Assembly (NCBI GenBank): GCA_905178155.1
Contig: CAJINV010000001.1
Span: forward strand, 6,951,794 to 7,015,793
Direction of reading: 5' to 3'
Origin: Amoebophrya sp. A120
Taxonomy: Eukaryota; Protista; Dinoflagellata
Length of the DNA: 64,000 nt
Shown one piece after another: positions 16,647-21,852 of the stretch (the stretch's first letter is position 1; every line of letters begins with the position of its first letter). The notes under the pieces are model-generated. The model saw nothing but the letters and a program-made list of their open reading frames with translations, did not search any database and was not told where the DNA came from. The position numbers and the translations under genes were made by a program.

Positions 16647-19600
16647 TCAAAGCTCGTCGCGAATAGCGTGGTAATTCTTGCGTGAACGGCTTGCAGTGCT
16701 TCTCGTGGGTGGCAGTGATGGTGAAGATGGGCCTCTATTTTTGTCCTCGTGATTTATTGATGTAGCATTCTGTTTATTCGCGTCCTCTTTTCCGCCGTCA
16801 ACAGCTTTCCCCAGGGACTTGAATCCGCCTTCTGCTAGCATGGACCGCGAGTGTACGGATTCGAACGCCTGCGTACCGTCCGTGCCGCAGAGCTCCACGA
16901 TGCTCTCCTCGCCGCCGGGGTGGATTTTTGCATACTTGGTCAGGTCGTAGACGTCGTCGTACAGGCGCACCCAACAGTCGCTGACAGAGCCGTGCTCGGC
17001 TAACTCTTTTGCTGAGATAACACGCTTTTCTTTCAGTTTTCTCCTGTTCCGCTTGTTTCCGCCTACCGTCGACGTCGCGCTCCGCGTACTTGTTCTCCCT
17101 GCACTGTCAGTGTCTTTCACGCCTATTGCTTCCTCCAGCTGTGCTAGCAATTGGCTCGTAGTCTCCGGCGCAGGTGTCTTCATCAGCTCTGATGTCGTTA
17201 TCGTGTTTCTCTCAACATTGCTAGCTTTAGGAATTATCTGTCGCCCGACCACGCGTCCAAACACTAGGCACTCTAGTAGACTGTTCCCGCCAAGGCGGTT
17301 CTTTCCGTGCAGGCCGCCGGCGATCTCTCCGACTGCGAACAGGCCGGGTATGGGGTGTCTCGTTCCGCTTCCGGAATAATTCTCGTCTTTTTCCGCACTT
17401 TCATCCCCAAGGTCGTCCCCCACGGCTCTTGTTACCAAGGAAGACGCGGCAGAAGGAGATGCTGCTGATGATGATGACGATGTACTCACCTGCGCGCGCC
17501 CACTATGTTGACTTGCATCGGCTGCAGCTGCTTCCGTACTTCTACTATTTCTACTCACCACTCGGTGCAAGTCATCCACTTCCACTCCGCCCATGGTGTA
17601 GTGCACTACCGGAACTACTTTGCCTACGACGACCTTGTCCGTCACGTCGGGTACGTTGATGAATTTAGTTTTTCCAAACGCATCCTTCGCGTCTTTAGAA
17701 GTGCCATCTCCTGCCTGTTTTCGGTACTGCTTGATGGCTTTTCTAAACTTCGCGATCGGATATGAATGATTTTCATCGTCGTTCGTCTTCACGTTCAAGT
17801 CCACTTCTGTCAGCAGGTTTTTCCGGCTGTAGTGCTGGACGTGCCGGTCTGCGGCTTTGATCGCGTCCTTGCCGAGGAGAAGATAGAAAGGTCGGACGCC
17901 CTTCTCCTTATCCCCCTGTTTCTCCATCATGCGGTCGACGACGTACTGCCGCGTGCCCAGCTCGTCGCAGAACCGCTCGCCCGACTCGGTCAGCAGAATG
18001 CCGCCCACGCCGCGGAGCACCTCCGCAGCTAGCGTTTTCGTCGCCGCGTCCGGCTGGCTGGGATCGACAAAACCGGTGGGGTGAACCTGTGTTCATCCGT
18101 TTAGATCTGAAATAATCGAGGCACGCGAACTACATGCTCGAGGTTTATGGTCGCAATAAAAGCGTGGAACGCTTGGGTTTCAACTGCTTTGTGCTTGTTG
18201 TTGTGCACAATTCTTACCTCGCATTTTACGAAAAAGAGAGAACAAACTAAAACGAAACAGAGACAGCCGCTTGTAGAAAAAATACGCACCTGCACAAACT
18301 GCATGTCCACGAGCCTCGTTCCGGGGAGTGCGAGCACCATTTTGATCCCGTCTCCAGTCGTCCACTTTCCCAACGTCGTGGGCGTTTTTCGCAGATCCGG
18401 GCGGCTGGTGTAGAGAAGCGACCCCTTCTGGCTGTGGTCGTGTATTACAATGAAAAATGCCCCCTCCCCATATCAAAACGGAAATCTGTGATGCAGATTT
18501 GTGGTCACAAATCAGCTTTGTGATGCTAGAAGGCAAAAGATGCGGACTGTAGGGCTGCCTAGCGTGGGAAAGCCTTGCAGCTCCAGGATGACAGGAGGCA
18601 ACTGGAAGTGGGAAACAGCATGACAGATTACCTGCAATTTAGGCCGCAGCGTCGTCTCTTGGACTTCTAGCAATACAAGTCGATTTGTGTACTCAAATAC
18701 AGCATCACAAATTCGCGCATCTTCCGTTTCCGATATGGGGTGAGGGCTTTTTTCACTTTGATATCGTGCCCGAACCCGCCAGTGGCCAGGACGACGTTTT
18801 TCGCAAGGACCTTGATCGCCTGATGTGACGCGGTAGAGGGTGGTGTTTTCGACGCAGCGGAAGTAGTAGATGGTGGCCCTGCTGCCACTGTCCGTATTCC
18901 GTGCACGCCAGTCACGGTGTAGTGATTTTTGCCTTCGTGATGTTCCATCGAACTCGTGCCGCTTTGCGTCAGAAGTCCCTTTACCGTGGTGCTCGGCAGA
19001 ATCGTCAACTGACCGGTCTTCTCAAACTCGCGCAGCCTCTTTTCCAGCACCAGAATGACTTCAGTGCCGATGAAGTTCCCGGTTGCGGGTCGATACGTGC
19101 GGGGACTCGAGTGCCCCCCCAAAACCGCCTTCAGCCCTAGATCCACGCCCTGGGCCTGCAGCCACCGCAGCCCCTCGTCCGACCCCTCGACGAGCGCACG
19201 CACGCGCGACGGCACGGCGCGGCCGCCACCAGATTTCATGGTGTCGTCAAAAAATTTTTGCAGGGCCGGGTTGCAGCTGTTCAGTGGACTCTCTCGGGGA
19301 CACAGGCCACCATCCACCCAACTTTGCTCCGTTTGGTTCATGGCATTTACCGTGTTTTGCAATTCTGCGCGCAGCGCTTCGTTCCAGATTTCTCCGTTGA
19401 TCCCAGAACTCGCCTTTCCGCTGTTCCCGCCGAACCGGGGCTCTTTATCGAGTAGCACGACTCGTGCCCCGCCCTGCAAGGCAGTCAAGGACGCGGACAT
19501 CCCGGCCAAGCCCGAGCCGACGACAACGGCGTCGGCGTTCAGGACCAGTTCGCGCGTGTCCGTTTCTGAGGTCGCGCGGTGTCGGCTCAAGTCACTCTCG

Positions 19601-21852
19601 ATGCTTTTCAGTAAAGCTTCACGCAAGACAACAGTCGTCTTGTTCATCTCTGCATCTACTCCTGAGCCACCCGCGGTGGCTGCTTGCTGCTGAAACACCT
19701 TCTGCAGTGCCCTCACTGCGACCGCGAGGTTTTGGTCTATCGACTCTTCTTCACTAGTATCGCTTTCTGGTACAGTAGTGTCCTCCATTGACATCAAATC
19801 GTCGTCAGCATCGTCGTTGCTACTGGCAGCCTCGTCCCGGTTCATCGTGTTCGTTTCGTCAAACACGTCCACCGGCTTGCGGGACGGGTGCGTCCACTGG
19901 TACAGCGACAGCAACTCGTTCGCCCGCTGCAACGCCTCGCTGAACGCGTGCAGCGTGTTTACGAGAGCGACAATTTCCTCCCGGGACATGCTGGTTGGCA
20001 GCATGTCATCCGGCAGCAGCAAGACCTTCAGTGCCGCGCCAATCCCGAGAATGTTCAGCTTTCCGTGCAGCTTGCACCGGCTGCACTTGACACAGGACAT
20101 CAGGGCACTGATCCGCTGAAAGCCCCGCTTGAACTCGCGTCGCGATACTTCCTTCGACAAAAACATGCTTCTTTCGTCGAACCCCTCGAACGCGCTGTGG
20201 CAAAACTGCAGGCGCTCGGAATCTAGCAGGCGTTTGATGAGGTCCGCAATTTTCTCGTCCTCCACAGCGTCGCCGGTATTGTACTTGTACTGTCGAAAAA
20301 AGTTGCTGCCTTTCTTGATACTCCGCAGCAGCACAACAAAGGCGAAGTACAGGTTCTTCAGCCTGTCGGGGTGCCGCGCGAACACCTTCATGAACTTTCT
20401 CGGGTTCTTCCCCCAGTCGTCCGGGTTGTCGCCAGTCGGAGGAAAGTACTTGTAGAAAATGGAAATACTGGTTGCGCTGTGCACCCCGGACAGCAGCCGG
20501 TAGAGAACCCGTTCCTCGAAACACCTCCCATCGTCGTCGTTTTTTCTTGCTGATGAGGGCGAAAACACGTCAAGTCTTGGTAATATTGGCTCTTCCTGTT
20601 GATGAACCAGCATTGCACTCGGCCTGTTTTCGTGCGAGAAACAGTTCTCACTGTACATGGCTTCCCAGATGTGCCGGCCGTTGTACCCCGTGTTGGTTTC
20701 TGGGTTTTTCATCAGATTCACAAACTCTGGTGCCTCCGTGCCCACTTTGGCACACATGTCCAGCCAAAATTCCGGCGCGTCCTCCGCGCAGTTTTCCGCG
20801 GCGATCACTTGCGAGAACTGCGACTCCTGGTCTATCAAATGCAAAAATGTCTGGGTCTGGAAACTTGTGATGCAAGGAAGGGAATACTGAGCACACTGTA
20901 ATGCGCTCCCCAGCATGACAAGTTTTTCCGTGGTTCAGAGTTGCTTACCCCGCATGAGAAACTGCGTTTTTGCATGACTGACCAGAGGACCTCTTCGCGG
21001 GCACGCAATACAGAGTTTAGAGTCATGCCAGACTAGCACGACAAATCCCGCAATCTCCCAGACCCAGACATTTTTGCATTTGATATGGTCCGTTTTCGCT
21101 CGATTTAAATCCGAAGTGTTTTTCATCAACTGCGCGGCCGCGTCGTCTTCCGTGTCCACGGAGCAAGCCGTCTTCGGTTTGTTATTTTCCATACTCATCA
21201 AATTCCCGGGCTTCTGCATCAACTGCGATACACCGGTGGCGCCACCGGGGTGCGGGAGCTGTATTGGTCCGGTGCACTCAAATTGCTCCTCCGCAGCTGC
21301 TGGTGCCTCTACTTCGGTAGCGGCTACTTTCGCTTGTTTTACTTGTTCCCTTTTCGCTTTATTTGAAGACGGTGACCCTGCTCTCTCATCGTCCTCGTCG
21401 TCGTCTAAATCGTCCAGATCGTCGTCTCCGGCGGAAGAGTGTGCGGACGCTTCGCTGGACGTTTTGTCATCTGACTCGATGTTGAAATCCACGTCGAAAT
21501 TATCGTCCGATTGTTGTAAAAAATCCTCGTCCAGCCACTTTTTTTTCTCGAAATCGTACTGGCACTTCGCATTCATGTCCACCTTGAACAAACGGAAGAA
21601 CAAGGTTTCGCTCAACTCAGAGAGAATCAGGGACAATTGCTTGGTGTTCGCTTCTTCCACCGTTTCTATGGCGCACGTCGTGTCCTCAATCTGGTGCATC
21701 TTGGTCGTCCGGAAGACGGACGGCGGCGCGACGGTGGTGCTCGCGTATTGCGCATTCGCTGGTATTGAACCATCGCCACCGGAACTATCCGTGTCGAAAG
21801 CCAGGAAACAGCTACTGGCTGCGAGCAGCAGCAGCAGGAGCCGCGGCTTCAT
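16647..21852 (-). CDS. ERO1: Fusion protein: signal peptide + ERO1 (ER oxidoreductin) + FAD-dependent soluble fumarate reductase (Osm1/flavocytochrome c type) + cytochrome b5 + C-terminal RDEL; ~1472 aa, 4 exons
   Basis: ERO1 motifs: [79 protein letters not shown] (CxxCxxC). FRD motifs: [94 protein letters not shown]. b5: [22 protein letters not shown]...AFESVHS. Removing 258, 326 and 203 nt of introns leaves 4419 nt in frame. Confidence 0.92.
18443..18763. mobile_element. TIR/TSD introner (non-canonical intron), 321 bp, in the fumarate-reductase domain
   Basis: TSD tcgtg at 18438-18442 and 18764-18768. Imperfect TIRs: tattacaatgaaaaatgccccctccccatatc vs revcomp tatcaaagtgaaaaaagccctcaccccatatc. 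Removal gives [14 protein letters not shown]...TTGDG. Confidence 0.88.
20833..21085. mobile_element. TIR/TSD introner family A, 253 bp, in the ERO1 domain
   Basis: Perfect 28-bp TIR tatcaaatgcaaaaatgtctgggtctgg; TSD tggtc at 20828-20832 and 21086-21090; removal gives [11 protein letters not shown]. Confidence 0.95.

Follow-up and report, generated by a model that had tools for sequence, protein, structure and literature searches.

The gene analyzed here lies on the minus strand of a 64,000-nucleotide (nt) stretch of the genome of Amoebophrya sp. A120 (contig CAJINV010000001.1; hereafter the window) and encodes one chain that joins an Ero1 domain, a soluble fumarate reductase (FRD), and a cytochrome b5 domain. 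The gene is real and is expressed as one spliced transcript. Judged by its residues, the chain is likely a protein-thiol:fumarate oxidoreductase and is predicted to be located in the lumen of the endoplasmic reticulum (ER). A survey of the architecture across eukaryotes recovered the same three-part chain in distant protist lineages, and the fusion apparently represents an undescribed, widespread protist family and not a parasite speciality.

Four exons, with the introns removed by reading the junctions, yield a product of 1472 amino acids (aa) with a single stop, which matches, letter for letter, the Amoebophrya sp. A120 protein P0121, deposited at NCBI as an "unnamed protein product". Introns 1 and 2 have the build of Amoebophrya introners, which carry terminal inverted repeats (motifs of 8–20 nt) and direct repeats of 3–5 nt at their borders, are spliced, and are repeated in the genome (PMC7789003). 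Their inverted repeats, at 32–35 nt, are longer than those described. Contigs of runs X1 and X4 jump exactly 203, 326, and 258 nt, and one X1 contig of 5040 nt, spanning position 22090 to beyond 16300, has no gaps but the three introns. This bears out an earlier proposal, made from the letters alone (the sequence-only reading), of one transcript and one chain. The status of X1 and X4 as RNA is a tool's guess; they are taken as spliced RNA because the joints at all three sites are intron-free. In run X6, none of the three splice joints is among the joints listed, and the depth is very high over the introner ends of the gene, which at the ends of intron 1 points to a multicopy element. Run X9 contributes one read and carries no weight.

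The sequence-only reading had placed the fusion in one uninterrupted open reading frame (ORF). The stop-to-stop ORF 18667–20934 does carry the core of Ero1 and, in the same frame, the first half of the reductase (Pfam ERO1, E 4e-72; FAD_binding_2, E 3e-22), and ORF 16647–18092 matches FAD_binding_2 and Cyt-b5 (E 1e-15). Both ends of the former ORF, however, are intron DNA read through by chance, and the real exon is 20827–18764; the Ero1–FRD junction lies inside this exon even after the correction. An artefact of gene modeling or assembly is ruled out by this junction, by the spliced contig, and by the family described below. A fourth intron at a GTGAGT near 17490 was rejected, as the X1 and X4 contigs are gap-free over 16300/16340–18084, save for a rare form that contigs cannot exclude.

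Relatives were collected with two-domain queries (the best 120 of 240 matches and all 100 of a second search), a choice biased toward the fusion. CxxCxxC followed by the flavin motif occurs in 213 of the 220 matches listed, and the b5 motif is reached in 167; many matches lacking b5 break off at similar points in the reductase and resemble gene calls cut short. An ERO1-only query of cluster representatives, with no length filter, found FRD in 37 of the best 55 and in 46 of the 150 listed. Across 217 relatives aligned to assess conservation, the catalytic residues, the CxxCxxC, and the heme histidines are nearly invariant, and a variable linker of 123–307 residues separates the CxxCxxC from the flavin motif. 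No stand-alone Ero1 of Amoebophrya is named among the 36 short matches, the cluster-representative search carrying no names.

The carriers comprise diatoms, dinoflagellates, one amoebozoan, one rhizarian, one diplonemid, and Mesostigma; the names include Biecheleria, three Amoebophrya strains, Perkinsus chesapeaki, Incisomonas, Paulinella, Pyxidicula, and Diplonema. Atlas clusters with the same domains come from Chlorophyta and Bacillariophyta and have very few members. Taxa represented by a single transcriptome (Pyxidicula, Diplonema) may reflect contamination. P0292, a full fusion labeled Batrachochytrium salamandrivorans, is the sole fungal label among fused members and may stem from contamination or transfer. 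Oxidative folding without O2 had been thought plausible for an intracellular parasite. That link is not supported: the fusion is common in free-living and photosynthetic protists, and a parasite-specific adaptation is rejected since most named carriers are free-living.

In a tree of Ero1 cores, the fused domains together with short look-alikes separate from the non-fused ones (36 versus 9 rows; Shimodaira–Hasegawa-like approximate likelihood ratio test, SH-aLRT, 99), and a second tree gives the same split (48 versus 44 rows; FastTree support 100). Both trees are unrooted, with hand-picked rows, and are compatible with a single origin of the fused Ero1, which could be ancient and followed by losses or could have spread by transfer.

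The Amoebophrya product comprises a predicted signal peptide, Ero1 (about residues 54–568), the reductase (686–1277), b5 (1348–1420), and a terminal RDEL. All of the motifs named earlier are present in the spliced product: CVKCSRC at 501–507, GSGLAG at 693, GGHS at 826, HPT at 995, EVLRG at 1015, HYTMGG at 1155, NRLGGNS at 1256, HPGG at 1382, VHS at 1404, and RDEL at 1469. The nearest solved sequences are yeast Osm1 (5glg, E 4e-62), Shewanella Fcc3, human and yeast Ero1, and b5 domains. The proposed signal peptide (residues 1–18) has counterparts in the family, in that 144 of 167 Met-started relatives have a hydrophobic leader versus 251 of 4340 interior control windows, as scored by a simple hydropathy test. 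The RDEL end, read earlier as an ER retrieval signal, is present, and the orthologue in Amoebophrya A25 ends in KDEL. It is nonetheless a local addition: xDEL or xTEL ends occur in just 3 of 167 b5-complete relatives (additionally, one Perkinsus protein ends in ADEL), which rules out RDEL as a family trait.

The residues critical in Osm1 and Fcc3 are H281, E301, R304, R326, H435, and R477 (PMC6242907). With the Osm1 numbering anchored by the R326A mutant chain 6ku6 in the alignment, these correspond to H995, E1015, R1018, R1039, H1155, and R1257, such that the flavocytochrome-c catalytic set is intact, as the sequence-only reading held. In the same order, they are conserved in 214/216, 211/216, 211/215, 186/198, 184/196, and 182/192 rows, the misses being mostly gaps. 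The insertion-rich Amoebophrya protein scores 276.4 against TIGR01813, below the cut-off of 285.45; of its relatives, P0005 (314.6), P0288 (360.4), and P0022 (375.6) lie above the cut-off and P0210 (280.4) and P0265 (90.8) below it. The second flavin pocket of Osm1 (P162, W295, F297, L298, F362, Y363) aligns to F841, T1009, T1011, L1012, H1078, and Y1079, with two of six residues kept. Across the family, Trp is not among the residues that cover 212 of 216 rows at the W295 position, the F297 position is Ile, Thr, or Val in 209 of 216, and the F362 position is Phe in 2 of 198, while L298, Y363, and S78 are retained. The free-flavin pocket of Osm1 is thus partly lost, and by its residues the protein is not a full Osm1.

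The b5 domain (PF00173, 57.6 bits against a cut-off of 23.7) harbors both predicted heme ligands, H1382 and H1405, which are histidine in 179 of 184 and 180 of 181 aligned rows. A tandem double b5 is found in 6 of 180 members, P0125 among them.

The Ero1 domain (PF04137) scores 243.7 bits against a curated cut-off of 27. Its CxxCxxC (C501/C504/C507, corresponding to yeast C349/C352/C355) and residues W310, T302, and H372 are kept in 217 of 217 rows, and S369 is conserved. The FAD (flavin adenine dinucleotide) contacts of yeast Ero1 are R187, T189, W200, S228, H231, and R260; the position of R260 is Arg in the Amoebophrya protein and varies across the family. Yeast Ero1p employs a disulfide relay via C100–C105, which is required for full activity (PMC3308690), and this Cx4C shuttle is retained in 9 of 10 canonical-type Ero1 rows. 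In the shuttle loop of the fusion family, two cysteines with a long spacer are conserved (206/213 and 200/214 rows); in the 103 members with exactly three loop cysteines, the first two are 10–46 residues apart, and the C193–C230 spacing of the Amoebophrya protein is 36. We infer that this long-loop pair replaces the Cx4C shuttle.

A single-chain structure model was built for the compact relative P0005 from an alignment of 62 sequences. Its domains are well formed, with a mean predicted local distance difference test (pLDDT) score of 81.5 and a predicted template modeling (pTM) score of 0.59, to be compared with rough ceilings, by our own estimate, of 0.48 for FRD alone, 0.56–0.58 for FRD plus b5, and 0.86 for all ordered residues, values that fit a docked and an undocked Ero1 alike. 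The best fold match is Osm1 (5glg; TM score 0.83 on the target, root-mean-square deviation 3.0 Å); the fold family of the flavin domain also includes urocanate reductase.

In the proposed mechanism, the C193/C230 pair would oxidize PDI and pass the electrons to C504/C507 and then to the Ero1 FAD. The b5 heme would relay them to the reductase FAD, where fumarate would be converted to succinate. Such a route could support disulfide formation at very low or zero O2 and with no H2O2 produced, and where O2 is available the Ero1 flavin may go on using it. We infer both the direction of electron flow and the role of b5 as a relay. The analogy to yeast, already drawn in the sequence-only reading, has a biochemical footing: yeast Ero1 and Osm1 together oxidize thiols with fumarate once O2 is depleted (PMC6242907). 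The two proteins bind weakly (Kd 150–200 µM), and their flavins are more than 20 Å apart in a docking model, with direct transfer called controversial by the authors (PMC6242907); a tether and a heme would fill both of these gaps. According to a review, which reports it second-hand, Ero1p can pass electrons to cytochrome b5 in vitro under anaerobic conditions (PMC2672033). The full chain from PDI via Ero1 FAD, b5 heme, and reductase FAD to fumarate, as a one-chain form of yeast Ero1 and Osm1, is judged moderately probable, while it is distinctly probable that disulfide formation is coupled to fumarate in some way, a mere tethering of the two enzymes included.

Several observations weigh against this scheme. 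The Cx4C shuttle was found in none of the 192 scorable members of the fusion family (25 of 217 members were dropped, their anchors being missing), a point absent from the sequence-only reading; the lack of this motif sets the fusion-type Ero1 apart as a subfamily separate from canonical Ero1. The loop bearing the substitute cysteines has a pLDDT mostly below 50 in the P0005 model. The arginine of the NPER motif, at the position of the presumed FAD contact R187, is Thr in the Amoebophrya protein and Arg in 192 of 217 relatives. Many b5 hemes have a higher potential than an Fcc3-type FAD, which would make one step uphill, and the scheme would require fumarate to enter and succinate to leave the protist ER. 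The carriers are largely aerobic or O2-producing, and Amoebophrya is itself described as aerobic, having an alternative oxidase but no complex III (PMC7789003), so that the need for an anaerobic route is not evident; this also tells against the former link to parasite life. Eleven fusion-clade Ero1 proteins of 428–564 aa (P0224–P0229, P0232–P0236) have no FRD; they end about 60 residues past the CxxCxxC and may be fragments or truncated gene calls or the result of true fission. Finally, P0265 of Perkinsus chesapeaki, an Ero1–FRD–b5 protein ending in ADEL, is without the catalytic half of the reductase, owing either to a gene-model error or to decay.

The same overall reaction would result if the fusion were only a tether, with the reductase reoxidizing the Ero1 FADH2 directly or via free flavin, as proposed for yeast, and with b5 serving other ER donors as a separate point of electron entry. 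The yeast pair manages without heme (PMC6242907), and FRD–b5 proteins without Ero1 cluster in fungi, so the reductase may simply have brought b5 along. The second flavin pocket can be read both ways, as Y363, L298, and S78 are retained but W295, F297, and F362 are replaced, and its partial loss favors a protein-bound relay. Moreover, nearly every row extending to the C-terminus retains b5 with both of its histidines, at times in duplicate, and a tether alone is considered fairly unlikely.

An unlikely arrangement is one in which the Ero1 half uses O2 like any Ero1 and the FRD–b5 half is an independent ER redox sink, the two being joined for co-targeting or co-regulation and possibly cleaved. 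The aerobic hosts, the long and variable linker, and the short fusion-type Ero1 proteins would fit such independence, but the fusion persists over several supergroups with both active sites strongly constrained, and the two enzymes it brings together are precisely those coupled in yeast. It is very unlikely that the flavin domain reduces another unsaturated acceptor or that the chain acts elsewhere in the secretory route, e.g., in the periplastid space of algae. All six residues of the fumarate set are in place, three of five tested relatives pass the TIGR01813 cut-off, and the Amoebophrya proteins end in RDEL or KDEL, even though the fold family extends to urocanate reductase and others, the Amoebophrya protein itself falls short of that cut-off (276 versus 285), and an ER retrieval signal is missing from most members. 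Nor are the Ero1 proteins of yeast and human known to carry KDEL, which speaks against placing the family in another compartment on this ground.

A broader form of the PDI-to-fumarate scheme is put forward tentatively. The fusion-type Ero1 may constitute a second, old branch of Ero1 in Discoba, Amoebozoa, SAR (stramenopiles, alveolates, and Rhizaria), haptophytes, and green algae, acting as a dehydrogenase that routinely hands its electrons to fumarate, in air as well, by way of a built-in FAD–heme–FAD wire and a long-loop shuttle unlike Cx4C. Were this so, no H2O2 would be made, and folding in the ER would be tied to fumarate/succinate exchange with mitochondria.

Among known systems, yeast Ero1p and Osm1 (5glg) share the same two enzymes, the six reductase catalytic residues, the CxxCxxC, and secretory targeting with the Amoebophrya chain. 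They are, however, two weakly binding proteins, whereas the latter is one chain with an added b5 heme domain, without Cx4C, with a partly lost free-flavin pocket, and with an Ero1 from a separate clade. Canonical Ero1/ERO1A (PF04137; 3ahq, 3m31) has the same core, active-site cysteines, and FAD-side Trp, His, and Thr; the fusion family differs in having two cysteines 10–46 residues apart in place of Cx4C, a family-wide FWxDxC motif, and C-terminal acceptor domains. Shewanella flavocytochrome c3 (1qjd, 1qo8) is likewise a soluble fumarate reductase whose FAD is bound non-covalently and whose electrons enter through an attached heme domain. Its heme domain is an N-terminal tetraheme c, in contrast to the one C-terminal b-type heme of the Amoebophrya protein, in which the donor Ero1 is built in. 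The fungal FRD–b5 proteins of the Atlas clusters share FAD_binding_2 and Cyt-b5 but lack Ero1 and are about 630–660 aa long. In the bacterial DsbA/DsbB–menaquinone–fumarate reductase route, the electrons of disulfide formation also end on fumarate without O2, but the disulfide generator is unrelated, the carrier is a membrane quinone, and several proteins are involved (PMC5638582, PMC2672033).

The sequence-only reading knew of no characterized protein with this architecture, and a description of the fusion was not found in the literature searched, which excluded supplements and most subscription journals, so a mention in a genome-paper table is possible. A partial Chrysochromulina record bears the name "ero1-like protein precursor fumarate reductase", which suggests that an annotator had already noticed the pairing. 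How Ero1 disposes of electrons without oxygen, and how peroxide is limited, is an open question outside yeast; for Arabidopsis, PMC9516139 states that no system for O2-free disposal of Ero1 electrons has been identified. A one-chain version that occurs naturally and is widespread among major marine protists would show that the coupling has been fixed by evolution. The electron path from Ero1 to Osm1 was left open in PMC6242907, and one protein offers the means to measure or solve it. A possible use is as a peroxide-free disulfide catalyst for low-oxygen expression.

Table 1. Features of the Ero1–FRD–b5 gene, in window coordinates.
Feature	Position	Strand	Basis or remarks
Predicted signal peptide, about residues 1–18	21799..21852	-	sequence
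Exon 1: signal peptide, Ero1 N-terminal part (C60, C97), acidic insertion, C193, C230	21086..21852	-	
Candidate shuttle cysteines C193 and C230 (exon 1)	21276-21274; 21165-21163	-	
Intron 1, 258 nt, non-canonical introner	20828..21085	-	35-nt terminal inverted repeat, 91% complementary; 5-nt direct repeat
Exon 2: Ero1 core, linker, fumarate reductase first half	18764..20827	-	
Exon 2 landmarks: CxxCxxC; linker; GSGLAG	20094-20074; 19890-19540; 19518-19501	-	
Intron 2, 326 nt, non-canonical introner	18438..18763	-	32-nt inverted repeat, 81%; 5-nt direct repeat
Exon 3: middle of fumarate reductase flavin domain	18290..18437	-	
Intron 3, 203 nt, canonical GT-AG	18087..18289	-	
Exon 4: fumarate reductase catalytic half, linker, cytochrome b5, tail, stop	16647..18086	-	
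Cytochrome b5 domain, residues 1348–1420, heme ligands H1382, H1405	16806..17024	-	Pfam Cyt-b5, E 1e-15
C-terminal RDEL, likely ER retrieval signal	16650..16661	-	

Further introner-like elements with inverted and direct repeats, starting with TATC, lie at 24076–24340 and 47258–47536. A strict introner scan gave three matches in the window versus one and zero in two shuffles, with intron 2 below the strict cut-off. The upstream neighbor of the gene (22392–24074, minus strand) encodes an ERCC4-domain protein, probably the XPF/Rad1 nuclease (Pfam E 1e-17), and the downstream neighbor (12435–15662, minus strand) is a frame of 1075 codons with no Pfam match at E 0.1. Over the whole window (1–64000), ORFs of at least 300 aa number 19 on the minus strand and 1 on the plus strand, a bias that agrees with the unidirectional gene blocks known for Amoebophrya (PMC7789003).

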